Origin: Polynucleobacter paneuropaeus
GTDB lineage: Bacteria; Pseudomonadota; Gammaproteobacteria; Burkholderiales; Burkholderiaceae
Assembly: GCF_003261235.1 (NCBI RefSeq)
Contig: NZ_CP030085.1
Location: 1,779,988 to 1,811,987 of the forward strand
Direction: 5' to 3'
Length of the DNA: 32,000 nt
The notes beneath the pieces were generated by a model. The model saw nothing but the letters and a program-made list of their open reading frames with translations, had not been told where the DNA came from and did not search any database. Numbering within the stretch: position 1 is the stretch's first letter; each line of letters starts with the position of its first letter. The translations under genes and the position numbers were made by a program. Shown here in pieces: positions 1 through 20,202 of this stretch.

Positions 1-437
1 CTGGGCTCAAATAAGCCACGACTATTACCAGAACACTGATTAACAGCAACAATGCGTTGGGATGGAAAGTTTTTCTTTAAGGACTCTAGAGAAATCTCTA
101 AAGGTTTTTCTACATTACCACCTACTTTTAGCCGATAAGTATTAGGGTCGATGGATGTTGGAATGCCTGCCATGTGATAACGCACAAAGAATTCATCATT
201 TGGCGTAATGACATGATTGTCATAATACTTAAATGGAGTCTCTAATTGCGGTGGCCTAGAAGTCAGCACAATCATGGGCTTCTTTTCAGGAAAGGACATG
301 AGTTCGCGTTCACCATAGGCTATGGGTAAATTTGTTTTCTCTGCGCCCATTGCCCAAGATGGCAATAATGAACTGGCCCCACCAGCTAAAGCTGCTGTAA
401 TGACTTTACGTCTATTGGTAAAGTTTTCTGAATTCAT
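1..437 (-). CDS. Sulfite-oxidase-family molybdopterin oxidoreductase (SorA-like), N-terminal ~145 codons only; gene runs off the left edge
   Basis: Absent from the ORF track because truncated. nt 1-437 align colinearly (high identity by eye) with 28187-28623, the 5' part of the complete ORF 27403..28626. ATG at 435-437 (minus) gives MNSENFTNRRK, a twin-arginine-type leader. Confidence 0.8.
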   Translation of the reverse strand, partial: MNSENFTNRRKVITAALAGGASSLLPSWAMGAEKTNLPIAYGERELMSFPEKKPMIVLTSRPPQLETPFKYYDNHVITPNDEFFVRYHMAGIPTSIDPNTYRLKVGGNVEKPLEISLESLKKNFPSQRIVAVNQCSGNSRGLFEP

Positions 438-566
438 GGCTGTCTCCTCCACAGTATTGTTTAGCTCATATCAGAATAGCTACTTTTATAGAAGTCTGCG
501 TTAGTGATTACCCTCAGCAATTATTGAAATGATCTTTCAAAACTACATTGCGAGTTAAGGAGAAAA

Positions 567-639
567 ATAGCCCAACAAGTGGGCTATCGTGATTCTTGGT
601 TGCACGGGGCATTATCAACTAAGGCATAGGATGTCTGAC
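567..639 (-). repeat. T-element copy 1 (degenerate): terminator hairpin ATAGCCCAACAAGTGGGCTAT + decayed tRNA-like core
   Basis: Hairpin 567-587 is identical to the other copies. The core TGGTTGCACGGGGCATTATCAACTAAGGCATAGGATG (597-633) aligns with the consensus TGGTGGCCCGGGGCGGAATCGACCAGGGCTGAGGATG with many substitutions. Confidence 0.7.
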
Positions 640-663
640 TATAGCTTTGGACTGATGCCTACT

Positions 664-930
664 TTATTCGTAGTGAGTCCACATTCTTAAGATTCGAACC
701 ATCTTCTCCTTGCGCAAAATTTCATAAACCAAGCGATGTTGAATATTAATTCTGCGTGAGTATGCCCCTTTTAGATCTCCGACTAACTTCTCATAAGGGG
801 GCGGATTTTGGAGAGGATCTACTTCTAAAATATTCAATAAGTCCTGGGCCTTATCTTTAAGGCCTGCGGCAGATAGTTTTTTTGCATCCTTAATGGCATA
901 TTTGGAATAAGCTAAATTCCAAGTCACCAC
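664..930 (-). CDS. yoeB: Txe/YoeB-family toxin (mRNA interferase)
   Basis: 88-aa ORF with YSRRINIQHRLVYEI and a C-terminal HY(E), characteristic of YoeB. Overlaps the upstream antitoxin ORF by 7 nt. Confidence 0.9.
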   Translation of the reverse strand: MVTWNLAYSKYAIKDAKKLSAAGLKDKAQDLLNILEVDPLQNPPPYEKLVGDLKGAYSRRINIQHRLVYEILRKEKMVRILRMWTHYE

Positions 931-1166
931 TTCAATGCCCTTTTACTTTTAGTAATAGGCTCAGCCATTGACTCTTTAATTGACTCACGCATCCCTGGAA
1001 TCGCCAATAGATAAAGCGTTTCCTGAATAGCACTCCAATCTTCTTCAGAAACTAAAACAGCATTTGCTCGCTTGCCAGAAATGACTACTGGCTTGTGTGA
1101 CTCTGCCGCTTGATCAATTAAACGGTAGAAATCTGCTCGAGCTGCACTTGCGGTTAATGTGGTCAT
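924..1166 (-). CDS. yefM: Phd/YefM-family antitoxin
   Basis: ORF 924..1214. I prefer the ATG at 1164-1166 (MTTLTASAARADFYRLID...), preceded by AGGAG. Typical YefM N-terminus and SEEDWxxxxETLYLL motif. Confidence 0.85.
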   Translation of the reverse strand: MTTLTASAARADFYRLIDQAAESHKPVVISGKRANAVLVSEEDWSAIQETLYLLAIPGMRESIKESMAEPITKSKRALKW

Positions 1167-1242
1167 GATTTCACTCCTTTTCAATATGGTACGTAAAAGC
1201 GTACGCTTTGTCAAGCGACCATCTCATCCACCCAACTAATAG

Positions 1243-1315
1243 AAAATGCCCCGCACGAAGCAGAGCATTATTTAAATCTGGTGGCCCGGGGCAGTATCGA
1301 TTAGGGCCGAGAATG
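1243..1315 (-). repeat. T-element copy 2 (variant hairpin CCCCGCACGAAGCAGAG; core TGGTGGCCCGGGGCAGTATCGATTAGGGCCGAGAATG)
   Basis: Core at 1279-1315 ends 1 nt before the stop codon (1317-1319) of the minus-strand lipoprotein gene. Confidence 0.8.
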
Positions 1316-1316
1316 A

Positions 1317-1823
1317 TTAATTAGTGATAAGGCTCATGGTTAGCATCCCATTGTCTATGTCCCCACTATCTTTTTTTAACTCGTCATCCTTAGCGCTATT
1401 AGCTTGTGCACCTGCTGCTGCACCAATAATTAAATCGCCTGGCACAAAAGCCCACAGCGCAGCGCTTACAGCATCACCAGTTGGATTTCTTGGAGAAATC
1501 TGAAATTGATAGCTCTTGCCGGCCTCAAACAGATAGTCATGTGAAAACATGCCTGCTGTATATGAAATATTTACTTTTAAGTTGTGTTTGCCAGCCGTTG
1601 TGTTTAACTGGCATTTATCCCCATTAGGAATAGCGCAGACCTCCAGGCCATCTAACAGAACAATAGCATCTCTAGCGCTCATATCACGACTTCGTTGACG
1701 CTCAAAAATTAAAGTGACGTCCCCACCAGGATTATTAACCGCTGGTTCAAGCTGAGGTGCAGTTTGACAACCCATCAAAATGGCGGTTATGCCGATTATT
1801 AATATCAGCTTTTTCAAGCTCAT
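1317..1823 (-). CDS. Lipoprotein, unknown function
   Basis: ORF 1317..1877. The internal start at 1823 gives MSLKKLILIIGITAILMGC-Q (signal peptide + lipobox). The longer form would run through the terminator hairpin of the next repeat. Confidence 0.75.
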   Translation of the reverse strand: MSLKKLILIIGITAILMGCQTAPQLEPAVNNPGGDVTLIFERQRSRDMSARDAIVLLDGLEVCAIPNGDKCQLNTTAGKHNLKVNISYTAGMFSHDYLFEAGKSYQFQISPRNPTGDAVSAALWAFVPGDLIIGAAAGAQANSAKDDELKKDSGDIDNGMLTMSLITN

Positions 1824-1867
1824 TTGTATCCAGTCATTACTCAACAATATTAATTTGAATATAAATG

Positions 1868-2261
1868 AAAAAACCACCCGAAGGTGGTTTTGGTGTTTCT
1901 TGGTGGCCCGGGGCGGAATCGAACCACCGACACAAGGATTTTCAACTCTGTCCCCCAGACTAAACTCCCGCTAGATCTCAAAAGGTTCACCCCACCCGAG
2001 TCTAACTTTGCGCACAAAACTTTCTTGGGTGTTTGTATGGGGTTGATTTAGTTGAGTTATTTTGACCCACGCAAGGATTAAATGTGAGTTTGGTGGTGTG
2101 ATGGGGATTTGACTGTCACAGGGATGTGATGTCCTTGTCGTGATCGGGATACCCTGCGCATGAAGTGTCCTTTTAAAGGACGTTACTTATTAATGCTGTA
2201 AGTGGATGATAGATTCCTTATATGCGCATATACGTATATATGAGAAGTCCTTTTAAAGGAC
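1868..2261 (-). repeat. Long composite repeat L1: terminator hairpin, tRNA-Phe 3'-half relic, ~220-nt conserved spacer with two TTGAC..CA(A/G)GGATG hairpin modules, two GTCCTTTTAAAGGAC palindromes
   Basis: From about 1893 to 2185 it aligns colinearly with 6752-7040 (L2), with scattered substitutions; the terminator hairpin differs between the two. Hairpin AACCACCCGAAGGTGGTT 1872-1889; palindromes 2167-2181 and 2247-2261. Confidence 0.85.
1901..1945 (-). pseudogene. tRNA-Phe(GAA) 3' half relic (anticodon loop to CCA), no 5' half
   Basis: The reverse complement TTGAAAATCCTTGTGTCGGTGGTTCGATTCCGCCCCGGGCCACCA matches the canonical tRNA-Phe layout: UUGAAAA loop, GUGUC variable loop, T arm, acceptor, ACCA. 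Upstream sequence cannot pair as an anticodon stem, D arm or 5' acceptor strand (no GGCCCGG). Confidence 0.8.
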
Positions 2262-2307
2262 ATCTCAGCGAGCGTCTATTAAAGCAACGGTTACTGCAAT
2301 AAAAGTT

Positions 2308-3117
2308 TTATACCGCCTTATATATTAGGCTCAGCGCAACTAAGAAAGCAAAAATAGCAAAGATTTGTTGCACTCTAGTGCCGCTGATCTTTCTCTCCAT
2401 TAGCTTTCCAAATACAAGCCCCACGAGTGATCCCAAAGCAAATAGGCTGGCAATCTCCACATTTAAATTGCCGGAAGCTAGAGATACAAGAGCCCCACCA
2501 GTAGAAACGATTGCAAGAACACCTAGGGAAGTGGCAACAATGGATTTCATTGGAAGGTCTGTAAATTTCTTTAGTGATGGCACTATGACAAATCCACCGC
2601 CAACTCCCAATAAGCCCGATAAGAAACCAGCAGTTAGGCCTGCATACATTAAAGACCTCGCACATGGCATAGTCCAAATCAATTTACTAATAGACAAATC
2701 AAGCTGACAAGGTGGAGGAGTTGGTGAAGTCGGCAAAGTGCCATGAATAGTCTTATGTGCTTGTATATAGAGCTGTACAGACACAAAAATTAAAATAGCA
2801 CTGAATAGAAGTAGCAATGGCGTATTGGGCACTTTGTTGGCAACCCATAGACCAATAGGGGACATGATTAAGCCAAAGAAAGACATGAAGATTGCCGCTT
2901 TATAGCGCAATACTTTTTCTTTAAGCCCAATAATTGCACCTACAGAAGCTGATAGCGCAATAGCGCATAGTGCAATTGGGCTTGCTTCAGCCACTGGTAA
3001 ATGAACAAAGAACACTAAAAGTGGCACGGAGAGTATGCCGCCGCCCGCCCCTGTAAGTCCCATTAAGATCCCAACAAATACACCTAGAGCTGGAATGATT
3101 AGCGTATGGGAATCCAT
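2308..3117 (-). CDS. TauE/SafE-family (DUF81) sulfite/organosulfonate exporter-type permease, copy 1
   Basis: 269-aa polytopic membrane ORF with the two Gly-rich repeats (GLTGAGGGIL, GLLGVGGGFV) typical of TauE/SafE. About 20 substitutions versus 28844..29653. Confidence 0.9.
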   Translation of the reverse strand: MDSHTLIIPALGVFVGILMGLTGAGGGILSVPLLVFFVHLPVAEASPIALCAIALSASVGAIIGLKEKVLRYKAAIFMSFFGLIMSPIGLWVANKVPNTPLLLLFSAILIFVSVQLYIQAHKTIHGTLPTSPTPPPCQLDLSISKLIWTMPCARSLMYAGLTAGFLSGLLGVGGGFVIVPSLKKFTDLPMKSIVATSLGVLAIVSTGGALVSLASGNLNVEIASLFALGSLVGLVFGKLMERKISGTRVQQIFAIFAFLVALSLIYKAV

Positions 3118-3183
3118 TAGTTGGCCTTCAAGTACAAGTTAATATTCATTGGCATTCGGGGTTTACTGATCCTACAATGAATC

Positions 3184-4059
3184 ATGGAAAATCAATATGC
3201 CCCAATCGTTAAAACCTTTTTTGATGCGCCCACTTGGACTTTTACTCATGTAGTTTATGAAAAGCCAGGTGTTCATTGTGCAGTTATTGACTCGGTGCTC
3301 AATTATGATCCCAAGTCAGGACGAACCAGCACTCATTCAGCAGATGAGGTAATTAAATTTATCCAAGAGCAAAGTCTGAAGGTTGAATGGATTTTAGAAA
3401 CTCATGCCCATGCAGACCATCTAACAGCAGGGTCATATATTAAGGAGCATCTTGGCGGCAAACTGGCAATCGGCAAGCACATTCAAGAGGTCCAGGCTGT
3501 TTTCAAAAACATTTTTCATTTAGAAGATGCATTTCAAGCCAACGGATCTCAATTTGACCATCTGATTGAAGCAAATGAGGAATTGCCTTTAGGTAAGCTA
3601 AAAATTCAATCTTTATTGGTGCCGGGACATACTCCAGCTTGTATGGCCTATGTAATAGGCGATACTATTTTTGTAGGTGACACCATGTTTATGCCTGATG
3701 TTGGTACGGCTAGATGTGATTTTCCTGGTGGTGATGCACATGTTTTATATCAATCAGTGAAGAAGATACTAAGTTTTCCAAATGAAACTAAGCTGTATAT
3801 GTGTCATGACTACCCACCAAACGAGCGGAAAATAGCCTACATGACAACGGTTGGTGAAGAGCGTCAACATAACATTCATATTCATGATGGCGTTTTAGAG
3901 CAAGACTTTGTAGCAATGAGAACAGCAAGAGACTCTACCTTAGAGATGCCCGTATTAATTTTGCCTGCAGTACAAGTAAATATTCGTGCAGGAGAATTTC
4001 CTCCCAAAGAAGCGAATGGCGTTTCTTACCTCAAGATTCCATTAAATTCTCTTGGGTAG
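3184..4059 (+). CDS. MBL-fold metallo-hydrolase (persulfide-dioxygenase/glyoxalase-II-like), copy 1
   Basis: 291-aa ORF with the THAHADH metal motif, then PGHT and CHDY. Paralog of 29720..30586. Divergent from the TauE gene. Confidence 0.85.
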   Translation: MENQYAPIVKTFFDAPTWTFTHVVYEKPGVHCAVIDSVLNYDPKSGRTSTHSADEVIKFIQEQSLKVEWILETHAHADHLTAGSYIKEHLGGKLAIGKHIQEVQAVFKNIFHLEDAFQANGSQFDHLIEANEELPLGKLKIQSLLVPGHTPACMAYVIGDTIFVGDTMFMPDVGTARCDFPGGDAHVLYQSVKKILSFPNETKLYMCHDYPPNERKIAYMTTVGEERQHNIHIHDGVLEQDFVAMRTARDSTLEMPVLILPAVQVNIRAGEFPPKEANGVSYLKIPLNSLG

Positions 4060-4074
4060 TTAATTGATCAAATT

Positions 4075-4308
4075 TTATTTTTGTATTAATAAATTAGCCA
4101 ATTGATCTACTACTTCTGACCACTCTGAGTCTTGGGCCTTAGCTTCAATCAAAAATGCTTTTTGATCTGGTGCCCAGTAAATGGCATCGGGCAGATTAGA
4201 CCCCGGCTTAAGTTGATGTCTTTCTATGTATCTCTCCATATGAATCTTTTGGGATGACAATCCTAACTGCTCAAAAAGCTCTTCCAAAGTTCTATTGTTC
4301 ATGCTCAT
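4075..4308 (-). CDS. DUF2789-like small protein
   Basis: 77-aa ORF. The pattern LEELFEQLGL...FIE..L......EA.FW...QA.FL.E....D.EW.E.VDQL matches my memory of DUF2789. Confidence 0.65.
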   Translation of the reverse strand: MSMNNRTLEELFEQLGLSSQKIHMERYIERHQLKPGSNLPDAIYWAPDQKAFLIEAKAQDSEWSEVVDQLANLLIQK

Positions 4309-4320
4309 CAGAATTCTCCT

Positions 4321-4398
4321 TCACCAGTATTTGAAGCGGGATCTCTCAACATCAACATCCCCACCTATAGCTCGCATCTTCATCTGACAATGTGGGCA
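4321..4398 (-). pseudogene. 3' remnant of a CxxC zinc-ribbon gene, paralog of 24979..25305
   Basis: The minus-strand translation TCPHCQMKMRAIGGDVDVERSRFKYW* aligns with ITCPHCQKPMRAIGADVDAKKPDKDF of the 108-aa protein. The frame is closed by a TAG just upstream, next to a C9 tract (4406-4414). Confidence 0.6.
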
Positions 4399-4458
4399 AG
4401 TCTAGCCCCCCCCCTTGCTAATATCAAAAATGAATGGTGGCGTTGTTTTAGTCCAACT

Positions 4459-4660
4459 TTGACCAACGCAGGGATGACAAAGCCCCAATAGATAAAGCGT
4501 CCTTTTAAAGGACGCTTCTAGTCAATGGGAAAGTTGGAAAACCAAGGGGAAATGGTGCCAGACCGCGGCCTACACTAGAGATTCTATGGACAACTTCTAA
4601 TATTCGGAGAATTCTTGGTGGCCCGGGGCGGAATCGACCAAGGCTAAGGATGCTCGATCC
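4459..4660 (-). repeat. Composite repeat (modules B-C-X-T) including T-element copy 4
   Basis: TTGACCAACGCAGGGATGACAAAGCCCC (4459-4486); 21-nt perfect palindrome AGCGTCCTTTTAAAGGACGCT (4496-4516); ~100-nt X module. The stretch from about 4499 to 4660 aligns with 26917-27079. tRNA-like core at 4616-4653. Confidence 0.85.
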
Positions 4661-4708
4661 TAGTTGGTGATACAGTAAATCTTGATCAAAACACTTTTGG
4701 AGTGAAAG

Positions 4709-5149
4709 ATGCCGACCTATACAGTGACTTACTCAAATACCAAACTAAGTGCCATACAAATGGAAGGTATTGCTCAGGCCATTACCAAAACCCACAATGA
4801 GTGCACTGGAGCGAATACCTACTTTGCTCAAGTGATATTTCAAGAAACTCCAAGTGGCAAACATTTCATGGGAGGTAAGCCCGTTCAAGATAGTCAAATC
4901 TTTCTACATGGACAAATACGAGCAGGGCGACCACCAGAACTCAAAGAAAAACTGATATTAGCAATGCGCGAAGCTTTAATTAAAAGCTCAGGACTCAGTA
5001 AAGATCAAATTTGGATTTATATTGTTGATCTAATTCCCGCCCAGATGATTGAGTATGGAGAAATTCTTCCACTATCAGGTAAAGAGAATGAATGGTTTGC
5101 CAGCTTATCAAGCGATCTTCAAGCAAAACTGAAAGCCTTAGAAAAATAG
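4709..5149 (+). CDS. Tautomerase-superfamily protein (cis-CaaD/Tautomerase_3-like)
   Basis: 146-aa ORF beginning MP (Pro-1 after Met removal is the catalytic residue of the family); size fits the long tautomerases. Its stop codon TAG lies inside the AAAATAGCCC arm region of the next hairpin. Confidence 0.6.
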   Translation: MPTYTVTYSNTKLSAIQMEGIAQAITKTHNECTGANTYFAQVIFQETPSGKHFMGGKPVQDSQIFLHGQIRAGRPPELKEKLILAMREALIKSSGLSKDQIWIYIVDLIPAQMIEYGEILPLSGKENEWFASLSSDLQAKLKALEK

Positions 5150-5214
5150 CCCAACAAGTGGGCTATTGAGATTCTTGGTGGCCCGGGGCGGAATCGACCA
5201 GGGCTGAGGATGCC
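5142..5214 (-). repeat. T-element copy 5
   Basis: Hairpin ATAGCCCAACAAGTGGGCTAT, then core TGGTGGCCCGGGGCGGAATCGACCAGGGCTGAGGATGCC at 5176-5214. It abuts the stop codon (5215-5217) of the minus-strand acyltransferase gene. Confidence 0.9.
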
Positions 5215-6066: not shown

Positions 6067-6090
6067 CGGCCATTCTAGACGCTATTAATG

Positions 6091-6169
6091 AAAAAACCAC
6101 CCGAAGGTGGTTTTGGTGTTTCTTGGTGGCCCGGGGCGGAATCGACCAGGACCTAGGATGTCCAATCCT
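6091..6169 (-). repeat. T-element copy 6 (hairpin CCACCCGAAGGTGG variant)
   Basis: Core at 6124-6162. The small distal hairpin AGGATGTCCAATCCT (6155-6169) overlaps the stop codon of 6168..6683. Confidence 0.9.
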
Positions 6170-6683
6170 ATCTTCTATAACTATCTAATTTCTCGCTCAA
6201 AGCCTCAACCGCTTTAGTTAAAGCATAAAGCTCTTTTTCTTTCATCATGTCGATCTTTTGATGAAGTAATTCGATTTCTAGCTCTGCTTTTACATTGACT
6301 TCAAAGTCGTTATTGGCATGTTGCCGATCTATCTCCGAGAGTCTATTCTGACTCATCATGATTGCTGGCGCTGTATAAGCCGCTTGAAATGACAGCATTA
6401 AATTCAAAAGAATGAAAGGGTATGGGTCCCAAACATTGGCATTATTTACAGAGTTATAAGTAATCCAACCCAAAATAGAAACGCTTTGAATAATGATGAA
6501 CTTCCAAGAGCCCACCGTTCTTGCCACCGCATCCGATATTTTTTGCCCAACAGTCAATGGTCCTATGGGTTGCTCGACATGGGCTGTAATTTGGGTCGGC
6601 AGTCCTTGGCGATGCCTTTTTCTGTGGGCACGCAAAGCGTCTAAAACTTGAAGTTCTTGATTGGTAGGTATGGCTGTAGTCAT
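6168..6683 (-). CDS. DUF1003-family membrane protein
   Basis: 171-aa ORF with two TM helices, DPYPFILLNL..S.QAAYTAP.IMMSQNR and a C-terminal coiled coil, as in DUF1003. Confidence 0.75.
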   Translation of the reverse strand: MTTAIPTNQELQVLDALRAHRKRHRQGLPTQITAHVEQPIGPLTVGQKISDAVARTVGSWKFIIIQSVSILGWITYNSVNNANVWDPYPFILLNLMLSFQAAYTAPAIMMSQNRLSEIDRQHANNDFEVNVKAELEIELLHQKIDMMKEKELYALTKAVEALSEKLDSYRR

Positions 6684-6726
6684 GGGGCTCTCCTAGTGTG
6701 CTTTCTGTACTCTACGCCCATAAAAG

Positions 6727-7040
6727 AAAATAGCCCAACAAGTGGGCTATTGAGATTCTTGGTGGCCCGGGGCGGAATCGAACCACCGACACAAGGATTT
6801 TCAACTCTGTCCCCCAGACTAAACTCCCGCTAAATCTCAAAAGGTTCACCCCACCATAGGCTAACTTTGTGCACAAAACTTTCTTGGGTGTTTGTATGGG
6901 GTTGATTTGGTTGAATTATTTTGACCCACGCAAGGAGTGAGAGAAAGTTTGGTGGCGTAGTGGGGATTTGACTGACGCAAGGATGTGATGTCCTTGTCAT
7001 GTTCGGGGTACCCCACGCATGAAGCGTCCTTTAAAAGGAC
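6727..7040 (-). repeat. Long composite repeat L2 (paralog of 1868-2261)
   Basis: Hairpin 6730-6750, tRNA-like part from 6760, conserved spacer, GTCCTTTAAAAGGAC at 7026-7040, 3 nt before the stop of 7044..7406. Confidence 0.85.
6760..6804 (-). pseudogene. tRNA-Phe(GAA) 3' half relic, second copy
   Basis: Identical 45 nt to 1901-1945; the same lack of a 5' half. Confidence 0.8.
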
Positions 7041-7043
7041 GGG

Positions 7044-7406
7044 TTATTTAATTAGCGCCTCTACAAGACGCTCAAACATGTCATCTTCATTCATACCCGC
7101 ATAATCGCCAATTAGATGTTTAGTGATTGAACTTTCTATTTCATCCTTATCAGGCGTATTAAATAACGCTTCAACTTCATCCTCGTCATCAGCTACAACA
7201 TAGTGCCCAAGATTAAAGTCATAGATCTCCCCTTCGAATTCAACTTTTGAAGTAATGATCATTTCATCCCTTCCTTCGCGCAGGCCTGCTTTATTCCAGT
7301 AGAGAATTAAATTCTCATAAAAGTCATCTACTGATTTAACTTCAAATGAACCAAAGTAGCTGTCATTATTAAAATTTCTTGAGGCATGCAAATCAAATTT
7401 TTTCAT
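7044..7406 (-). CDS. Hypothetical acidic protein
   Basis: ORF 7044..7421. The ATG at 7404-7406 (MKKFDLH...) has GGAG about 10 nt upstream. Asp/Glu-rich. No family recognised. Confidence 0.6.
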   Translation of the reverse strand: MKKFDLHASRNFNNDSYFGSFEVKSVDDFYENLILYWNKAGLREGRDEMIITSKVEFEGEIYDFNLGHYVVADDEDEVEALFNTPDKDEIESSITKHLIGDYAGMNEDDMFERLVEALIK

Positions 7407-7644
7407 AGCAATTTTCTCCAAATATTTTTCTTATTCTATCTCCGCTAGATATCAATACTAGCTATACCTCTCATCCCGATAGTCACAAAAATCAATTTAG
7501 TCCAAAAGATTACTAAAAATTCCCTGAATTCATACCAAATCGCCTGATTTTCAAAATAAGAATTATTACGAATACGAGGTGGGGTTAGATTAGATCACCA
7601 GGGGCCGAGATCTCCACTGGCGTTGAAAATTGCGCGGTAAATTT

Positions 7645-8025
7645 TTAGGGCTTGCTACTGATCGGCTTAATAGCCTGTTGGTGATGCTGGCGATCTTTCT
7701 CGAGCTTTAATTGTTGTTTTGCTGAATCTACATTACGCCTAAGAGAGGTAACTCTTGCCTGCTTGAGATTCATTGTCTTAATAGGCTTAATCATTTTGAT
7801 AGCTTCATCTACAGTAAGCGCATCTTCATCCTCAGACAAGCTGGGGGCAGATGCCAAACTATTCATACCAAATTGATATTGCAGAATCAGCCGCGCATGG
7901 ATCTGACTATCGGCAAATACTGCTGTTTTAACTTGATGACCATTGATACGGACAAGGGCTTGATATTTGTTCATACAAATATTTATAGTCTCGGCGCCCC
8001 TCGGGTCTTTTAAATCATGTCGCAT
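7645..8025 (-). CDS. Hypothetical protein
   Basis: 126-aa ORF, co-oriented with its neighbours. No family recognised. Confidence 0.5.
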   Translation of the reverse strand: MRHDLKDPRGAETINICMNKYQALVRINGHQVKTAVFADSQIHARLILQYQFGMNSLASAPSLSEDEDALTVDEAIKMIKPIKTMNLKQARVTSLRRNVDSAKQQLKLEKDRQHHQQAIKPISSKP

Positions 8026-8257
8026 TCGGCTCTTTGCCAGCTGGCTCGCCTCTGCGATGGGGGCTTCAGCCCACCCATCTTTTCCAAAACGTGCACCACG
8101 TGGTGCTGGAAAATGATGGTCTTCTCTGTCCTAAGCGCACCAGCTGGTGCAGGACATTCGTCTTAGGCTTCGCTGGATCGGTGGCGACAGCTATCGCCAC
8201 CTATGGGGCTACCTTGCGGTGCGCCCCATATATAAATGTCCTTTAAAAGGACAAACA
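8026..8257. other. GC-rich, multi-hairpin intergenic element, possible structured RNA or ssDNA element
   Basis: 37 of 60 nt are G/C in 8041-8100 by hand count, against an AT-rich background. Six consecutive palindromes/hairpins (coordinates in findings), ending with GTCCTTTAAAAGGAC at 8238-8252. Confidence 0.5.
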
Positions 8258-8695
8258 TCAACGGCCAAAGCCCGCACGTACAGCGCCGCTTGCGGCTTCA
8301 ATTTGAGTATCAAGCTCACCCGCCTCTACGGCGACCTTAATAATCTCTAGGGCTTTAATCAGCTCCTCTGCTGAATTCACTTCTACAGCAGTTTTACCTT
8401 TAGCAAACTCAATGATCTTGGCACCATAGCGGATGTTTAAGCAAACTTTGCCATCCATAGCAACAAACCACCACTGACGAATACGCTTTTCATGTTCAAT
8501 GGTTTTACGTGCACCAGTGATGTCTTTAACTGTTTTGAATTTCTTAACAGTAAATGTGCCGCCTTCTTTGCTGGCTTTAGCTAACTGGATCTGCTCCCAG
8601 ACTTTGTTGGCTAATTTATTACGACGATGTAGTACTGGCGGTATAGCTGTTGGCTTTTTTGAATTAACCATTTTCAAACTGTTTAATGTGCTCAT
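8258..8695 (-). CDS. Hypothetical protein
   Basis: 145-aa ORF. No confident family assignment. Confidence 0.6.
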   Translation of the reverse strand: MSTLNSLKMVNSKKPTAIPPVLHRRNKLANKVWEQIQLAKASKEGGTFTVKKFKTVKDITGARKTIEHEKRIRQWWFVAMDGKVCLNIRYGAKIIEFAKGKTAVEVNSAEELIKALEIIKVAVEAGELDTQIEAASGAVRAGFGR

Positions 8696-9360
8696 CTTTT
8701 TCTCCTATAAGTTAATGGGCACACTTAATTTATTGTCAGAGTTTTTGGATGGACAACCTCTTTTTGCCAAAAGCCACAGAGATCTAATTATCTGACCCAG
8801 ATCTTGTCTCCTTTTATTAGGTTTCACTAAATAACTACGACGACAAAGCAGAAGAACGTTTTGTATGCCATAACTTATTACTACTGAAACAAGGGCAGTG
8901 ACACCCAGTCGTTATGTCACCCTAAAGCTGGACTTAGAGTCGCAGTCATGGAAATTCTGGGCGGTAGCAGAGACTTGTATTCACCATCCTTTACAGGACG
9001 CCATTAGCCTTGCTGACTAATATGAATCAAGTATATAAATTAGCACAAAGATCGTAAAACCTAGTTTTATGGATCACGAGAAAGCCCTGCTTACACAGCA
9101 ACTTTCAAACAAGACAAAGGTAGCCACTTATTGCTTTTGTCATTGTTGCGTTTCAAGCCGCACGTAAAAGGAGACAGCGAAACCGCCCTTCCCAAACTGG
9201 TTGTGCCCATAAGTGGTGTAGTAAAGAACTCAACAAAAGTCCTTTTCTATTACTGAGCCTGTTGCTTAAGGCTCAGTGTAGGTTGAATCTTCCAAAAGCT
9301 CTTAATAAGAAAAAGAAATGTGATGAGCGACAAGCGAAATCACAGGAGAACGTAGTTCGC

Positions 9361-9999
9361 CTATCTATCTATTTCAATAAATTCAATATTTCTTCCTGAT
9401 ATTGAATTAAATTCTTCAATACAAGTTTCTCTTAAATCCTCAATTCGCTCATCCATTTCTTGGAACGACATGATGTCATCCCTGCTTAAGTCAGTTTCTT
9501 CTTCTAATACATCATCAATATCGTCGATATCACATGACCAGCTATAGCTTAATTCTTCTTCCTCTTTGTGCTCAATGAATCCAAGTAATTTGTCAAAACA
9601 GACAATTCTTGTACCAATTAAATGGGGGTTATTGTCCTTATAATCCATCTGAACTACAACATCGGGATCTATGATTGAAGCGCACTTAGCAATATGATCT
9701 TGTAACTTTTCAGGGGCGATATTTTTACTTTCAAACTCAAGCTTATGGGTTGAACCAAAATACCAGCAACCATGAGCTCCAAGTAATTCACCACCATCAA
9801 ATTCATCCCCTTTACTCATGCCATAAAGTATTCTTGTGACAGCAGAATATCTCTCCGCATTTTTATCAAACGAGTATGTTCCAGAGCTATCTGTATTTTT
9901 ATCGAAATCATTCTTAAATCTTCGGATAATTTCTTTTTCTAATTCACGAATTTTTTCATTGCCATAAAAAGTAAACGTGCTTTCTACAGGTGTAGACAT
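9361..9999 (-). CDS. Hypothetical highly acidic protein
   Basis: 212-aa ORF. The C-terminal third is very Asp/Glu-rich (DIDDIDDVLEEETDLSRDD...). Confidence 0.6.
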   Translation of the reverse strand: MSTPVESTFTFYGNEKIRELEKEIIRRFKNDFDKNTDSSGTYSFDKNAERYSAVTRILYGMSKGDEFDGGELLGAHGCWYFGSTHKLEFESKNIAPEKLQDHIAKCASIIDPDVVVQMDYKDNNPHLIGTRIVCFDKLLGFIEHKEEEELSYSWSCDIDDIDDVLEEETDLSRDDIMSFQEMDERIEDLRETCIEEFNSISGRNIEFIEIDR

Positions 10000-10316
10000 T
10001 TTTCACCTCAAATTAAATTTGTTTAAGTAACTATAGCTAATTTTTATAACAACAGAATAGTTTTAAGCGGAAATCTTTCAAGCTCGCTGGCTTGGGTGGC
10101 TGAGCCAAAATTTAAAACGCTTATAGGTCGTTTTAAAAGGTCATCAAAATATCGTGGCGAAAATGCCACGATAAATATAAGAGAACAGTACTACTCTTAT
10201 ATTTTTGCCTAACTCATTGATAAAAAAGTACTTCTTTTTCAGCCATTTTCGGTTGCCCAAACCGAATCTAAGAAAACATACTGTAGTTCTGTATTTAATA
10301 TATTTGAGGAGAAAGT

Positions 10317-10883
10317 ATGTCACAAGCTAGAGTTTTAAATCCACAGGAACTACGCCGAGTTTTAGACCATGTTGCTACACGTAGGCATTCAGCACGTAAT
10401 CGCGCTATGTTGCTGTTAACGCACTACGCGGGTATGCGAGTCGCTGAAGTAGCCGCACTACGCATAAACGACGTTTTAAACGGCGACAGTACTATTAAGG
10501 GTGAAGTGCGCTTAATGCCCGAACAAACCAAGGGCAAACACCCTCGTACTGTTTACTTAAATGAACGGATGCAAAAGGAGCTGGCGCAGTACATCAAAGT
10601 AATCAAAATCAAAGATGCAACGAAACCCTTGTTTTATACACAGAAACAGGCGGGGTTCTCATCCAACTCTTTGACCCAGTACTTCTTTTACCTTTATCGC
10701 AATGTCGGCCTAGCTGGATGTAGCTCACATTCAGGTAGAAGGTCTTTTTTAACTGGACTTGCCAATAAAGGCACAGCGATTCATATATTGAAATCTCTCG
10801 CTGGGCACCGCAACATCAGCACCACCGCCACCTATCTCTACAGCAGTCCCGATCAACTCAAAGCCGCAGTAGAGCTAATTTAA
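10317..10883 (+). CDS. Small tyrosine recombinase (catalytic domain only, FimB/FimE-size)
   Basis: 188-aa ORF with GGAG upstream. Catalytic signature: AGMRVAEV (Arg), HSGRRSF (His-x-x-Arg), LAGHRNISTTATYLY (His...Tyr). Confidence 0.85.
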   Translation: MSQARVLNPQELRRVLDHVATRRHSARNRAMLLLTHYAGMRVAEVAALRINDVLNGDSTIKGEVRLMPEQTKGKHPRTVYLNERMQKELAQYIKVIKIKDATKPLFYTQKQAGFSSNSLTQYFFYLYRNVGLAGCSSHSGRRSFLTGLANKGTAIHILKSLAGHRNISTTATYLYSSPDQLKAAVELI

Positions 10884-11222
10884 CTATTTGGAGAAGTCGC
10901 TAAACACTTCTCCAGTGTATTTGTCATTAACCCTTGCTGTCTTTAAGTTGACAGTAAAAGCCAATCCTCTTGTGGCAAGTCGATGACCAAACCACTTACA
11001 CAGAACCTCAACTCTAGTTGCATTGTTCTTTCCATCAAGAATAAGTACTTGATCACCAAGCAAGAAAGTGCCACTAAATGTTGAACGCCTATATTTCGCA
11101 TCGGTAACATCAATTACACGAGCATTCTTAACCTTTATAGGCTTTATAGGCTTCGCTAATTTTGTAGTGTGAGGAATATCACTTTCCTCTTCCCACACTG
11201 GTGCTTTGTAATAGAAATCCAT
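10884..11222 (-). CDS. Hypothetical protein
   Basis: 112-aa ORF convergent with the recombinase. No family recognised. Confidence 0.5.
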   Translation of the reverse strand: MDFYYKAPVWEEESDIPHTTKLAKPIKPIKVKNARVIDVTDAKYRRSTFSGTFLLGDQVLILDGKNNATRVEVLCKWFGHRLATRGLAFTVNLKTARVNDKYTGEVFSDFSK

Positions 11223-11285
11223 ATAACCCTCATATTTGCTTACAAGTTGTTATTAGGATATCAAATTTGTCCTTTTAAAGGGCAT

Positions 11286-12050
11286 TTACTGTGCGGGGAA
11301 TTTACCTAGAACCACATTCTCAATTATTAGCTCGGCACCACTTAGATACCTTTTTACGCTTGAGCCCATAGTGTTCCTCCTTGCGGCATTTATAGCTGGA
11401 AAGAGCTTTGGAGAAGTCATTGCTTTGGGGATTAAAGTTAAGCTCTCACCTATCTTCCAATTGGGCACTTTTGGCTTCTTTCCTTTGTGCTTCATGTATT
11501 CATCATATACATCTAAGGTTTTCTCTAAATTTTGTACTGTGTAATTTCTAGCCAATTGATACTTGGCATTACTTTTAGTTGATCCCTTAGTTGGTCTACC
11601 ACGTCCTGCCGTATGGCGCTCTTTTAATAGTTGTGCAAAACGACTTTGTAAATACCTTTTACTAGACGTTAGTGGTACAGCAAGAATCATCACCTCATCT
11701 TTGCTCCAACCATCTTGCCACTGTGACTTATCTTCCAGCTCTGTTAATTTCATTGCCCCATAGTTTTCGGCGAATAAATTCGGTCCTCGCTCGTCCTTAG
11801 TCCACCACTTGTGAAAGTCATCATCTCTCACATCTCCAAAGTCTTTATATAGCTCGGCATGTTTTCCTTTGCCGCCACGCTCACAACACTCTAAATATTC
11901 TTGATTACGGCGTAAGAACTGCCACCACCAGTAATAAGGACTGCGCTTTTGATATCCAAGTGGCAGTCTTTTGTTTTTTGTACCAAATATAGGGTACGGA
12001 GCTAGGAATCTTCTTGGCATTTTCTTGGCATGTAAATTGCAGGAATTCAT
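11286..12050 (-). CDS. Hypothetical regulator-like protein; the WWWQFLRRNxEY motif resembles the proteobacterial transcriptional-regulator-like domain DUF6499 seen in integrative elements
   Basis: 254-aa ORF. The motif YYWWWQFLRRNQEYLE is recalled from DUF6499/DUF2285-type ICE regulators (memory-based, unverified). Confidence 0.6.
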   Translation of the reverse strand: MNSCNLHAKKMPRRFLAPYPIFGTKNKRLPLGYQKRSPYYWWWQFLRRNQEYLECCERGGKGKHAELYKDFGDVRDDDFHKWWTKDERGPNLFAENYGAMKLTELEDKSQWQDGWSKDEVMILAVPLTSSKRYLQSRFAQLLKERHTAGRGRPTKGSTKSNAKYQLARNYTVQNLEKTLDVYDEYMKHKGKKPKVPNWKIGESLTLIPKAMTSPKLFPAINAARRNTMGSSVKRYLSGAELIIENVVLGKFPAQ

Positions 12051-12156
12051 AATCGTATCAGAAATATACCCGTTCTGCGTTCTAATTTAATTATGGCCAA
12101 GCGGTTAAATTTCTTAACAAGCAGTCATATTTCTTAATACAGAAAGAGAGTTAAAA

Positions 12157-12939
12157 ATGAATGCATTATTAAACGCAGTAGATACAACCCCTGTTACAAC
12201 AAACGTCCTTTTAAAGGACACAGCCAAAGTAACTAACGTTGCTGTTGGTACTACCGTTGCCCTTACTAATATGGAAGCAAATCGTATTAACTGGGAACAA
12301 GGTGCCTACAGAACAAGTAATCAAGCCTTATATGCAGTATTAGGCGATTGCTTGGCTTTTTGTGGTGATATGACACTTCCAGAAGCTAAACAACGTAGCG
12401 CATCTTTAGAGTCTTTCTATAAGGATCGCGGCTACACATATAAAAAGGATCTCCCATTAGCGACACGTGTAGTACGTGCAGTTTTTGGATCAAGAGATCG
12501 CCGTCGTATTAGCACCTACTCTTTGGTTATTCGTCAGGCAATGAAAGAGAAAGTTTTGATAGCTGACTTTTCAGCGTGGGTGGAAGAGCGTGGCGGGGTT
12601 CAAGAGATCAGTCTTGGCAAGAGCGCTACTTACATCAAGCCTGCGGACAAAGCTGAGATTGCTAAAAGCAATCTAAAAGGCAAAACACCGATTGGCTATG
12701 CCAAGTCTGAATTGCTCTCACATGTTGCTGATGCTCAGTACCTAGGCGATATGTGCGTACTTTTAGCAGAGCAACAAGCTGATGGCAGTTTTGGTGTCTA
12801 TGCAGTTTTGCGTCAAGACGGACTGGTTAAGTCTGCCTTTACCTCTTTGTATGCGGTTGGCAAAGAGCTTGAAGACAAAGCCAAAGCAGAGATCAAAGCG
12901 GCAAATGATGCTGATGGTGCGGTTGCTAAATCAGCTTAA
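12157..12939 (+). CDS. Hypothetical protein
   Basis: 260-aa ORF with an AAGAGAG-type RBS. It contains an in-frame copy of the GTCCTTTTAAAGGAC palindrome at 12205-12219 (encodes VLLKD). Confidence 0.65.
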   Translation: MNALLNAVDTTPVTTNVLLKDTAKVTNVAVGTTVALTNMEANRINWEQGAYRTSNQALYAVLGDCLAFCGDMTLPEAKQRSASLESFYKDRGYTYKKDLPLATRVVRAVFGSRDRRRISTYSLVIRQAMKEKVLIADFSAWVEERGGVQEISLGKSATYIKPADKAEIAKSNLKGKTPIGYAKSELLSHVADAQYLGDMCVLLAEQQADGSFGVYAVLRQDGLVKSAFTSLYAVGKELEDKAKAEIKAANDADGAVAKSA

Positions 12940-12957
12940 TTAATCAAGGGGAATGTT

Positions 12958-13677
12958 ATGAGCGTTCCCCATTCTTATTTGAAAGGAATACAAATGTTTA
13001 CGAAAGGAAATAATCATGAGCCTAAAACAATTGATGACATCATCTTTGGAAATAATGAATCTAAATTGCGGATTGAAGATATTGTCTCGGGTGCCGAAGA
13101 ATTACCTTACAGCGGCAAATCAGCCATTCTTTTATACGGAGTCTTTGGGACAGGCAAAACCACACTGGCCAAAATGCTACCTAACCACATTGAATATGGC
13201 AAAACTAAAGAAGAGTTAGTTTGGGATCCAGTGTTTATAGGCTGTCAGCAGGGCTTTAATGGGCCACAGCTAATGACTAAGATTGATGCAATCATGACAA
13301 CAATGTCGCTAAACGTCAGCGGCCTTCATTACTTCATCCTTGATGAGGTGGATAACTTAACCAAGCTGGCGCAACAAAGTTTGAAAACGGCCTTGAATAC
13401 GACATTAGGTGTATTTGTGCTCACAACAAACAATGTTTCTCAATTAGATAAGGGCATGTTAGATCGTTGCATCTTAGTTGAGATGAATGCGGCAAATCCG
13501 AATGCTTATTTGGATATTGCCAAATCCATTGCCAATGAAACAGGAGTCACTTTATCTAATGATGAGCTTCTACCAACTATTCAGGCCGCCAATGGATCAT
13601 TTCGTAACTTGTTTCATAACGTGGGGCGCTTGGCTAGACGTAAGGCGGAAAAGGTGCCACCTAATGCTATCTACTAA
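12958..13677 (+). CDS. AAA+ ATPase, clamp-loader/RFC-like
   Basis: 239-aa ORF. Walker A GVFGTGKTT, Walker B ILDEVDNL followed by AQQSLKTALN (RFC box V-like), and LDRCILVEM (SRC-motif-like). Confidence 0.8.
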   Translation: MSVPHSYLKGIQMFTKGNNHEPKTIDDIIFGNNESKLRIEDIVSGAEELPYSGKSAILLYGVFGTGKTTLAKMLPNHIEYGKTKEELVWDPVFIGCQQGFNGPQLMTKIDAIMTTMSLNVSGLHYFILDEVDNLTKLAQQSLKTALNTTLGVFVLTTNNVSQLDKGMLDRCILVEMNAANPNAYLDIAKSIANETGVTLSNDELLPTIQAANGSFRNLFHNVGRLARRKAEKVPPNAIY

Positions 13678-13687
13678 GGAGGGAACT

Positions 13688-13873
13688 ATGGAATCAGCAT
13701 GGATTGTCTTTCTTGCAGACGATGATGAATTTGTTATTGAAGTCTTTGATAACGAAAAGGCGGCCATTGATTGCTTTAAGTACCACATTAGCTCTGCACC
13801 ATCAGCCACCTACATCGTTAGAATAGACCCAACAAACTTTCAGTCTACCTTTACCGTCCCACTTGAAGAGTAA
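13688..13873 (+). CDS. Small hypothetical protein
   Basis: ATG at 13688 preceded by AAGGAGG. It is the 3' part of ORF 13487..13873, whose upstream part overlaps the ATPase gene out of frame. Confidence 0.55.
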   Translation: MESAWIVFLADDDEFVIEVFDNEKAAIDCFKYHISSAPSATYIVRIDPTNFQSTFTVPLEE

Positions 13874-13880
13874 AGTTAAT

Positions 13881-13905
13881 AGCCCACTTCCGAGTGGGCT
13901 TTTTT
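13881..13905 (+). terminator. Rho-independent terminator
   Basis: AGCCCACT-TCCG-AGTGGGCT followed by TTTTT. Lies between the convergent genes 13688..13873 and 13904..15178. Confidence 0.8.
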
Positions 13906-15178
13906 ATGCCAACCTATCCGCCGCCATCGTTGCCGTCAACTTGCTGTAATGACGATCAATCATGGCGGCACTATTTCCCATCTGCTTAGATAGCGTATGT
14001 ATATCAGTCTTGTTCTCTAGTAGCTCCAAAGTAGCGTAGGTATGACGCAAGGAATATAAAGTACGCATCTGTCCGTCGTGACTCAATCCCAAGCCACTAT
14101 CTCGCATCAATCGCTTAAATGCGCCATCAATCCGCATGGGCTGGTGTCCGTTGGCAAAGACAAAGATCCGCTCGGGGCAACGAGTCTCAAACAATCTGTC
14201 AAATGGGATGTCGTACACAGCCTTTTGCCTACTGTGTAATCGCTTGAGAACGTCTACAGCTTTATGTTTGGCAATGAGCCAACGCCCTCCTGTCTTGCCA
14301 TCCACCCAAATACGTAGGTATTTCTTATCTCCCTGCGTGTGCCACTCAATATTATTCCAGCAGATATTCAGTGCTTCAGTGCCATGCCGCATGCCTGTGT
14401 ATAAGAGCATTTCCACATAATCTCGCAGTAGCGGACGAGTCTCATGCTCAATCTCTAATCGGCCTTGTTTAATCCATGGCTCCATAAACTCCAACAAGCG
14501 ATCAATCTCTTCACGAGTGAATGCTGGGCGGGTTTTACCCTTCTGCCCTCTAGCTGTGAGTTTGGGAATAGCTACTCGCTCGCTGATCCAGCCTTTGCTA
14601 ATAGCCACAAGCTGTAACTTAGTCCAAGCACTGGCAAAGTTCATTAGGGTGCTGGCACGAGGGATCTTATTCATCTGCCTATTACGCCAAACCTCAAACT
14701 CATGCACGTCTGTATAAGTTATTTCTTCTAGTCTTTTGTCCTGAAAGTAAGGTAGAAAGTATTTTTCAATACAGGTGATGTAGCTACCGTAGACACTTTT
14801 GCCTATACCCACATCCAAGTCTTGCCGCATTGAGTAGAGAGTGGCGTGTGCAATTTCTGCAAACGTGGGCGACTTTTGTGCAAGCCCCAGTCTTTGGCGA
14901 AATCTGGTTTCATCGTAAAGATCACAAGCCATTCGTACAGCGTGTTCAATGCTGGCTTGGCGCGTGGTCTGGCGATGCCATGAGCCATCTTGCAATCTAA
15001 AACGGCAATGCCAAAGTGGGCTTCCGGGTCTGCGGTGGATAACTACCTCGCCATCACGCAAGTAAAGCTCTGTGGGTTCGGCGTATTTGAGCTGGCTTAG
15101 GGCTGTGGGTTGGGATTCTTGGAGTGGTGAGGAGATTACTTCTAGGTGACTTTCAGGTACTTTGATTACCTTAGTCAC
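13904..15178 (-). CDS. int: Tyrosine integrase (phage-integrase family, P4-like size)
   Basis: 424-aa ORF. LYTGMRHGTE (Arg), LRHTYATLEL (box II His-x-x-Arg region), IDRHYSKL (catalytic Tyr). Confidence 0.9.
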   Translation of the reverse strand: MTKVIKVPESHLEVISSPLQESQPTALSQLKYAEPTELYLRDGEVVIHRRPGSPLWHCRFRLQDGSWHRQTTRQASIEHAVRMACDLYDETRFRQRLGLAQKSPTFAEIAHATLYSMRQDLDVGIGKSVYGSYITCIEKYFLPYFQDKRLEEITYTDVHEFEVWRNRQMNKIPRASTLMNFASAWTKLQLVAISKGWISERVAIPKLTARGQKGKTRPAFTREEIDRLLEFMEPWIKQGRLEIEHETRPLLRDYVEMLLYTGMRHGTEALNICWNNIEWHTQGDKKYLRIWVDGKTGGRWLIAKHKAVDVLKRLHSRQKAVYDIPFDRLFETRCPERIFVFANGHQPMRIDGAFKRLMRDSGLGLSHDGQMRTLYSLRHTYATLELLENKTDIHTLSKQMGNSAAMIDRHYSKLTATMAADRLA

Positions 15179-15318
15179 TTTGTAGGTGGCGTGCTGTTGT
15201 CATACAGCTATTTTATTTTCAGCTTTTGTTTTGAGCAACCTTAAAAAGAAACGCCTTCCTCTTTTATTAATTATGTTTACCTCGTAGTTTTGGCCACATT
15301 GAATGATATTCATTTTGG

Positions 15319-17829: not shown

Positions 17830-17830
17830 A

Positions 17831-19342: not shown

Positions 19343-19997
19343 AATAACTTGTTAAAGGATAGTCCTTTACTGGTGTTGGAATGAAAACTCCATCACCCAT
19401 ATCAGAAAACAATGGCAATGATTCAATTTCTGCATGGATTAGCAATCCTTCAAATGAATAATCGCGTCGCTTTACGAACCCCTCTGTTGCTGGTGACCAC
19501 TCTGAAAATACAATTGGTTTTGGTGGATTCGACGCTGTTTGAAACGTCAATGCATCACCCCAAACAATATTCTTACTCAAAATAAACTCTATTGAGTTAA
19601 TGCATTCTTCTCTTTTATTACTCTTGTATGATTTATCATAAAATTCAATGAATTTATTGAGCAATCTTTTTCTGCAATCAACAACATTATCTTCAAGAAT
19701 GTCTATGCCATAAAGGCTTGAAACGGCAATAATCGAATAGCATTCAAACTCAGTTTGACTCTTTTTGTATCTTGACTCCACTGTCGCCAATTTTCTAGTT
19801 AATATTTCTATCAAAAAGTTACCATGCCCACATGCTGACTCTAAAAATCTTGAGTCAATTCGTTCTGTTTCATGCTTGACTAAATCAAGCATTGCGTTTA
19901 CCTCACGAGGGTTTGTATAAACCTCACCATGGTTAGTGACCCGATTTCTAGAAACAACTTGGGAATCGAGCGGTTCCTGTTTTAACTGGTTACTCAT
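19320..19997 (-). CDS. Methyltransferase-like protein lacking a canonical NPPY (degenerate N-lobe paralog)
   Basis: 225 aa. VYTNPREVNAMLDL (motif X), FLESACGHGNFL (motif I), LYGIDI (II), WGDAL (III), and only SNPPKP where motif IV is expected. Overlaps the next ORF by 23 nt in another frame. Confidence 0.7.
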   Translation of the reverse strand: MSNQLKQEPLDSQVVSRNRVTNHGEVYTNPREVNAMLDLVKHETERIDSRFLESACGHGNFLIEILTRKLATVESRYKKSQTEFECYSIIAVSSLYGIDILEDNVVDCRKRLLNKFIEFYDKSYKSNKREECINSIEFILSKNIVWGDALTFQTASNPPKPIVFSEWSPATEGFVKRRDYSFEGLLIHAEIESLPLFSDMGDGVFIPTPVKDYPLTSYFGVTNER

Positions 19998-20127: not shown

Positions 20128-20202
20128 TTATTAGTTAAGGGGCTCATCTAGTGAGCTTCTGGTCTCATATTCTGACTATTCGCCATAACTTAGGGGATAG
20201 TC

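Follow-up and report, generated by a model that had tools for sequence, protein, structure and literature searches.

Within a 32,000-nucleotide stretch of Polynucleobacter paneuropaeus DNA (contig NZ_CP030085.1, positions 1,779,988 to 1,811,987, hereafter referred to as the window), a segment comprising sorA, tauE, and a gene for a metallo-beta-lactamase (MBL)-fold enzyme is present in two copies that differ in the spacer separating the sorA start codon from the tauE stop codon. This spacer spans positions 438-2307 in copy 1 and is far shorter in copy 2. We consider it likely that the window lies inside an additive, tRNA-anchored island downstream of the Polynucleobacter tRNA-Phe(GAA) gene, and that the two copies represent separate allele arrangements. 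The observations that bear on this are the anatomy of the junctions, the anchoring of related arrays at tRNA-Phe in relatives, the recurrence of gene cassettes, the unequal divergence of the two flanks, and the presence of mosaic alleles.

Pfam searches identified the genes of the segment as encoding the catalytic subunit of sulfite dehydrogenase (sorA; PF00174, matched by the sorA fragment of copy 1 and the full sorA of copy 2), a TauE sulfite exporter (PF01925, 148-149 bits), and an MBL-fold enzyme (PF00753). Comparison of the copies by blastn aligned 1-450 with 28187-28636 on the sorA side (92.7% identity over 450 bp) and 2309-4048 with 28845-30578 on the tauE-MBL side (85.7% over 1740 bp). 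The sorA-tauE gap is ~1.86 kb long in copy 1 compared to ~0.21 kb in copy 2, confirming a preliminary description of the window that had reported one long and one short spacer. The same description had homology resuming at the sorA start and the tauE stop, which is broadly the case, but the limits lie elsewhere in detail. On the sorA side, homology extends 13 nt past the ATG (437 in copy 1, 28623 in copy 2), across the Shine-Dalgarno sequence, and ends at 450/28636. At the other end, colinear similarity that is weak yet significant begins ~160 bp ahead of the tauE stop codon (2146-2244 compared to 28706-28795, z = 7.2, with 0 of 500 dinucleotide shuffles equally good), and over the last 30-45 nt before the two stops direct similarity between the copies is not significant. 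The segments without a counterpart are ~451-2145 in copy 1 and 28637-28705 in copy 2. The breakpoints, 450/28636 and ~2146/28706, fall outside any tRNA-like core and not clearly within a set of hairpin modules termed A, B, and C, the two places that the preliminary description had proposed to check.

The tRNA-like cores belong to recurring sequences, here termed T-elements. Read on the minus strand, a T-element consists of a conserved arm, usually straight after a stop codon, followed by TGG(T)TCGATTCCGCCCCGGGCCACCA, AGAAT, and a hairpin with a T-run. The arm is ~25 nt long, the core is a copy of the final 22-26 nt of tRNA-Phe(GAA), reaching from the T loop through CCA, and the hairpins, which vary in sequence while pairing is kept, scored as intrinsic terminators. 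The window contains 13 T cores, all on the same strand, giving the array at least that many sites, and a 24-nt core occurs 10 times at three or fewer mismatches, with 0 occurrences expected. In two copies in the window, 1897-1945 and 6755-6804, identity to the tRNA reaches 49-54 nt, back to the anticodon loop. These two extents, the T core and the anticodon loop, correspond to the two positions at which tRNA-targeting integrases classically cross over (PMC4383910).

A complete tRNA-Phe gene with exactly the T-core end is present in Polynucleobacter sp. AP-Kaivos-20-H2 (locus L001), the closest genome among the tauE-encoding loci, and in locus L036. Metagenomes were scanned with the arm-type core; this returned at least 120 contigs, of which 80 loci were analyzed. 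Together these loci hold 183 cores, which are co-oriented in 79 of the 80 and have a median spacing of ~1 kb. In L093 and L057, arrays of six and five units, respectively, terminate exactly at a complete tRNA-Phe gene, so that the array ends at tRNA-Phe(GAA) in four relatives (L001, L036, L057, and L093). The main open reading frame (ORF) lies on the tRNA-sense strand in 84 of 111 small units (76%), and in 50 of those 84 its stop codon is 16-49 nt from the core. No T core was found in the viral contigs scanned, and neither the T-elements nor the A/B/C modules matched a family in an Rfam search at permissive E-values.

The content of the copy 1 spacer given in the preliminary description, namely a decayed T-element, a yefM-yoeB pair, a second T-element, a lipoprotein gene, and a long composite termed L1 (1946-2307), was recovered in full, with the addition of a third T-element, T3 (1868-1945), before L1 (Table 1). 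In the decayed element, T1*, 6 of 22 core positions are changed, and the element as a whole is 82-87% identical to members of the family; the conserved gene-side arm is present on both it and the second element, T2. The yefM (PF02604, 69 bits, cutoff 29.8) and yoeB (PF06769, 36.6 bits, cutoff 27) genes overlap at 924-930 and form an adjacent antitoxin (Phd/YefM) and toxin (YoeB/ParE fold) pair, as expected of a YefM-YoeB system. The ORF at 1317-1823 encodes a signal peptide with a cysteine lipobox (MSLKKLILIIGITAILMGC), and profile searches returned no significant family for it. Look-ups of exact protein matches to this lipoprotein and to TauE1 came back empty. Positions 1897-1945 of T3 reproduce the terminal 49 nt of tRNA-Phe(GAA), anticodon loop through CCA, and are 100% identical to L001 2725-2773, which lies inside a real tRNA-Phe gene. 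The unit formed by T3 and the left part of L1 is paralogous to 6720-7050, the end of a 15-kb unit that bears a recombinase gene. The sequence 5' of the 49-nt repeat (1946-2000, minus strand) looks by eye like a degenerate D-arm and anticodon stem of tRNA-Phe, so that T3 may be a decayed copy of the whole tRNA and not a bare 3' fragment; ARAGORN did not call it as a tRNA.

Homology blocks shared between the window and the metagenome contigs are bounded by T cores (589/596-1315, 4609-5199, 6087-6801, 27031, 30743, and 31323). The yefM-yoeB unit occurs again in contigs L076 and L107 at 88-90% nucleotide identity, with a T-to-T length of 681-684 bp compared to 682 bp in the window, with its promoter and hairpin kept, and with both outer flanks unrelated. 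Its left attachment (att) core, altered in the window, is intact in both contigs, and the cassette is probably fixed in place in the window. Units encoding DUF1003, a tautomerase, and BrnTA follow a similar pattern of recurrence. The reappearance of cassettes with the same boundaries and different neighbors indicates that the units are real modular additions. Moreover, unit content differs between strains while boundaries stay at the repeats, and the co-oriented direct repeats at the unit boundaries are identical to the tRNA 3' end, both of which are properties of an additive island.

The preliminary description had interpreted these units as insertions relative to an ancestral short spacer represented by copy 2. 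The modular nature of the units is upheld by the recurrence in L076 and L107, but the ancestry of the short spacer is not. Copy 2 had been described as containing only the A-B-C modules; these are present at 28738-28816, but the spacer also includes a unique leader. The account that would make the short spacer ancestral is that a sorA-short spacer-tauE-MBL segment was duplicated in the genome, after which cassettes were inserted into the spacer of copy 1. This would explain why the functionally linked genes share order and orientation in both copies and why the module block adjoining tauE is colinear, and it draws on cassettes that are real modular units. We nonetheless regard it as unlikely. 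The spacer of copy 2 (28637-28843) contains no T core, arm, hairpin, or cassette fragment, and so offers no att core at which a cassette could enter. The two sorA leaders are unrelated to each other (451-600 compared to 28637-28737, p = 0.14), and the leader of copy 1 is found in another context: positions 451-519 are 88% identical to sequence upstream of sorA in locus L046, where this leader and an intact T-element are followed by a different cassette, an operon matching window positions 23622-26863.

The divergence of the two flanks also argues against a shared duplication. The synonymous difference (pS) between the copies is 0.26 +/- 0.04 for sorA, a figure derived from 145 codons, compared to 0.46 for tauE and 0.42 for MBL, and the corresponding numbers of synonymous substitutions per site (dS) are 0.33, 0.71, and 0.61. 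The flanks thus differ approximately two-fold in pS, and dS values of 0.3-0.7 are at the level of divergence between lineages; the uniform, low synonymous divergence expected of a recent intragenomic segmental duplication was not found. Furthermore, tauE1 is far nearer to its L001 counterpart (dS 0.18) than to tauE2 (dS 0.71). L001 carries a tauE1-MBL1-DUF2789 set that is 94% identical to 2166-4408 and lacks sorA, and this set sits in a 9.3-kb island with tRNA-Phe on one side and the 49-nt repeat on the other. The MBL gene of L001 is mostly copy-1-like, but is 99-100% copy-2-like over its last ~400 bp (window 3631-4030 compared to L001 5059-5460), which points to recombination between two allele types. 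The two-fold difference in pS and this mosaic together imply that the flanks do not have one common duplication history.

Locus L036 provides a third arrangement. Its SorA is 99% identical to that of copy 2, and it is without tauE-MBL. Its sequence (region 9649-10000 of L036) corresponds to the window up to 28776 joined to 30622-30771, with the leader, module A, half of B, C, a linker, and a hairpin leading into a complete tRNA-Phe gene. In the window, tauE2-MBL2 (~28777-30621) lies between direct repeats of the B-C modules at 28768-28816 and 30614-30661, for which L036 has a single hybrid module. It is possible that tauE2-MBL2 was inserted into an L036-like state, and also possible that L036 arose by deletion from a copy-2-like state; the latter, through recombination between the B-C repeats, would be compatible with duplication followed by insertion. 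Given the contexts in L036, L046, and L001, along with the unrelated leaders, unequal pS, and missing T core, copy 2 is a different arrangement and is not supported as the ancestral, empty state. From the sequence comparisons, the best reading of the two copies is as diverged, circulating alleles of a functionally linked set of sulfite genes, brought in or recombined separately and co-resident in one island.

That copy 2 instead goes back to a copy-1-like arrangement that lost its cassettes by deletion appears very unlikely. Recombination at T-elements and hairpin modules demonstrably adds or removes segments, as is evident from comparison of L036 with window positions 28777-30621 and 26851-27081. 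However, the deletion scar that the preliminary description had named as the sign of such a loss is absent, with no cassette remnant left in copy 2, and in L036 the leader of sorA2 runs on uninterrupted via the A-B modules to tRNA-Phe. Least credible of all is the notion that T-elements are a dispersed tRNA-derived repeat, similar to miniature inverted-repeat transposable elements or repetitive extragenic palindromes, or else an RNA element of 3' untranslated regions, with the cassettes being ordinary genes between repeats: the elements do lie straight after stop codons and ahead of terminators, and the arm is able to form a small hairpin, but the arrays keep a strict common orientation and terminate at a real tRNA-Phe gene, homology blocks of the contigs are interrupted at the cores, neither T cores nor C modules occur in ~370 kb of other sequence from the genus and relatives (the distant sorA locus L037 and 33 further tauE loci), and the fold energies are ordinary (z from -1.3 to -2.9, with one positive value). 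A selected tRNA-like mRNA structure was likewise dropped as a candidate explanation for the T-elements, as the RNA-folding z-scores were unremarkable.

Under the interpretation of a tRNA-anchored additive island, the island is an array of head-to-tail units, each ending, on the minus strand, in a stop codon, the ~25-nt arm, a T core copied from the end of tRNA-Phe, and a hairpin that acts as an intrinsic terminator. Such junctions would be left by repeated site-specific integration at the tRNA 3' end, where an incoming element would restore the end of the tRNA and bring a terminator while the displaced copy would mark the far end. Cassettes would enter by a tyrosine-recombinase crossover within the core, leaving the arm on one side and the restored tRNA end and terminator on the other, and homologous recombination at the T-elements and the A/B/C hairpin modules may add reshuffling. 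The spacer of copy 1 would then consist of the sorBA1 unit's leader together with the decayed att copy of that unit (T1*), the yefM-yoeB cassette, the lipoprotein cassette, a 330-bp end fragment (T3 and L1-left), and finally the 3' flank belonging to tauE1. The parent element of the 330-bp fragment would recombine further inside the tRNA, in keeping with the 49-nt identity. In copy 2, tauE2-MBL2 would sit inside the leader of the sorBA2 unit, between the two copies of the B-C modules, with the upstream att site of this unit pushed to 30747.

The window encodes one candidate for an enzyme that might act in trans on the cassettes, which themselves lack an integrase: a 188-aa tyrosine recombinase (10317-10883; PF00589, E = 6e-26) located in the 15-kb unit (6760-21978). 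Homologs of this recombinase were found inside T-to-T intervals of 11.6-12.7 kb in L071 and L074, and the other six loci with a homolog have one or no flanking T-element on the contig. No primase or helicase replication module was identified adjoining the recombinase gene. It is possible, if doubtful, that the T array is a working cassette-capture platform, analogous but unrelated to integrons, in which promoter-bearing, terminator-insulated units of 0.5-1 kb are moved in trans by the ~188-aa recombinase at a ~75-nt site derived from tRNA-Phe, with the Polynucleobacter-1 RNA participating in its control. This RNA, an orphan Rfam motif (RF01718), lies upstream of the small recombinase gene at 8893-9032 of the window. 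It was also detected in 4 of the 8 metagenome loci with a recombinase homolog (L090 10109-10244, L100 4762-4900, L071 3715-3852, and L074 10401-10538), and, with this position upstream of the recombinase gene in 5 loci, it appears to be part of a mobile element.

Several observations weigh against the island model or parts of it. ARAGORN found no tRNA gene of any kind, tRNA-Phe included, within the window, and the array leaves its right end, so that the anchoring is deduced from relatives. For the two cassettes of the copy 1 spacer, no recombination event, excised circle, or clean pair of empty and occupied sites was seen, and the lipoprotein cassette has no homolog and no second occurrence among the 80 metagenome loci. 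The recombinase comprises an Xer-like catalytic domain only, and its tie to the T sites is one of co-occurrence alone. The 145 codons are a small basis for the sorA divergence, and gene conversion could partly underlie the difference between the flanks. Finally, breakpoints relative to the relatives also fall in the A/B/C hairpin modules, and much of the mosaic may therefore stem from homologous or module-based recombination, with no need for cassettes to move site-specifically.

The array is integron-like in layout but lacks all three features that define an integron. In common with sedentary chromosomal integrons, it contains co-oriented cassettes of ~0.5-1 kb with a conserved site after the ORF, includes toxin-antitoxin cassettes, and displays a bias in ORF orientation. 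However, the sole recombinase is not an IntI-type integrase, reaching 43 bits against the TIGR02249 cutoff of 265 and 24 bits against the PRK15417 cutoff of 435. Neither GTTRRRY nor RYYYAAC occurs on either strand of the T-element, which therefore lacks the inverted R''/L'' and L'/R' boxes of attC, and its conserved part is instead the tRNA 3' end. Nor are the cassettes promoterless genes served by a common promoter, as yefM has its own promoter and a terminator follows every unit. In addition, the chromosome-side flanks of tRNA-Phe at four loci have no common sequence, no integrase, and thus no attI/intI-like arrangement.

Among systems built by site-specific accretion, the cis-mobilizable elements (CIMEs) found with ICESt1 and ICESt3 of Streptococcus thermophilus accumulate as few units per site. 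They may resemble the present array in consisting of att-flanked units without an integrase gene, in tandem with an integrase-bearing element and presumably mobilized in trans, but the array described here has a dozen or more units per site. The tycheposon islands of Prochlorococcus, in which partial tRNAs are scattered by successive integrations (10.1101/2020.12.28.424599), are similar in their position beside tRNA genes, their scattered partial tRNAs, and their remnants of degenerated elements. They differ in having a recombinase clade and replication modules of their own as defining features, and the units found here are much smaller. Islands catalogued by Islander likewise regenerate the target gene and leave a displaced 3' fragment at the island end, and both the T-stem and anticodon crossovers of such islands are represented in the window. 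Islander tandem arrays, however, require an integrase in every member, and those with three or more members are rare, with 4 in 2168 genomes (PMC4383910), whereas most units here are 0.5-3 kb and without an integrase gene.

The closest published parallel is fGI-2 of 'Ca. Methylopumilus', an additive flexible genomic island in which the last 20 nt of tRNA-Lys are repeated and units of 330 bp to 42 kb are mostly of unknown function (PMC10872708). Both cases involve streamlined freshwater Betaproteobacteria and an array of small, variable units beside a tRNA gene whose 3' end is directly repeated. Here, in contrast, the target is tRNA-Phe, the repeat, at 22-26 or 49 nt of the tRNA, is longer and lies in a conserved site of ~75-85 nt with an arm and a terminator hairpin, and the A/B/C hairpin modules also mark breakpoints. 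Additive islands with cassettes have been reported for Polynucleobacter (10.1101/2022.03.25.485477), but our literature search found no paper describing a tRNA-Phe array in this genus, and PMC5644125 mentions no tRNA or integrase.

In a recombining island such as this one, a pair of copies within the same genome cannot safely serve as a before-and-after control. The boundaries documented here at base level show small accessory genes stored and shuffled beside tRNA-Phe in an abundant freshwater bacterium, with toxin-antitoxin cassettes between decayed att sites much as in chromosomal integrons. If integrase-less cassettes are indeed mobilized in trans, this would constitute a second, independent route to integron-like gene capture.

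Table 1. Features of the two sorA/tauE-MBL copies and their spacers, in window coordinates
Feature	Position	Strand	Basis or remark
sorA copy 1, first 145 codons; gene leaves window at its start	1-437	-	PF00174; 92.7% to 28187-28636
sorA1 Shine-Dalgarno (to 450, common to copy 2) and copy-1-specific leader	438-560	-	copy-2 homology stops at 450
T1*, decayed T-element: hairpin 566-588, core 597-618, gene-side arm 619-645	561-645	-	intact site in L076, L107
yoeB 664-930 and yefM 924-1166, type II toxin-antitoxin cassette	664-1166	-	Pfam; T-flanked again in L076, L107
Sigma-70-like promoter TTGACA-17-TACCAT of yefM-yoeB cassette, upstream of yefM	1186-1214	-	kept in L076, L107
T2, T-element: hairpin 1245-1269, core 1279-1300 (slightly decayed), gene-side arm to 1315	1240-1315	-	L076/L107 homology stops at 1315
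Lipoprotein cassette gene, 168 aa, lipobox LMGC	1317-1823	-	ORF
T3, tRNA-type T-element: hairpin 1870-1891, tRNA-identical part 1897-1945	1868-1945	-	L001 comparison
L1-left; with T3 makes 330-bp unit paralogous to 6720-7050	1946-2145		87% over 300 nt
Hairpin-module block (C-like, A, B, C), 3' flank of tauE1	2146-2307		89-94% to L001 6811-6950; colinear with 28706-28843
tauE1 2308-3117 (minus) and MBL-fold gene 3184-4059 (plus)	2308-4059		Pfam; 94% to L001
T-element directly 3' of sorB2, 3' boundary of sorBA2 unit	27035-27079	-	same junction in L039, other neighbor
sorB2 27081-27392, sorA2 27403-28623, Shine-Dalgarno	27081-28636	-	Pfam; 95.6% to L036
Copy 2 spacer: unique leader 28637-28705, module block 28706-28843 (A-B-C 28738-28816)	28637-28843		no T core
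tauE2 28844-29653 (minus) and MBL2 29720-30586 (plus)	28844-30586		Pfam
Second B-C module copy 30614-30661, then linker, hairpin, T-element 30714-30786	30614-30786	-	L036 runs on into tRNA-Phe

Several further features of the window were noted. Between sorB2 and a gene encoding a 117-aa protein, at 26851-27081, lies a 'long T-element' of 230 bp, made up of the A-B-C modules, a linker, the core, and the arm, which is missing from this position in L036. The palindrome GTC[CG]TTT[TA]AAA[CG]GAC, which includes a compensatory C/G variant, has 14 exact matches in the window (2167, 2247, 4499, 7026, 8238, 12205, 20112, 21804, 23301, 23518, 26820, 26918, 28798, and 30643). It is often found just past stop codons, on either strand, and at homology breakpoints relative to relatives, and is restricted to island loci of this lineage. 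One copy, at 2164-2184, was scored as terminator-like on one strand by a pattern scan, and the palindrome may be a bidirectional terminator.

The 15-kb unit also contains a defence-like block (13904-21800) that includes a T5orf172/ResIII helicase gene (15319-17829), Eco57I/MmeI-type methylase ORFs (17831-19997), and a gene for a WYL-WCX regulator (20832-21800). An ORF at 20203-20517 carries four or five tandem 21-bp repeats at 20284-20388. Toward the right end of the window, a BrnT/BrnA cassette (31383-31897), the second toxin-antitoxin unit of the array, lies between T-elements at 31326 and 31972, and is also T-flanked in L080 and L057.

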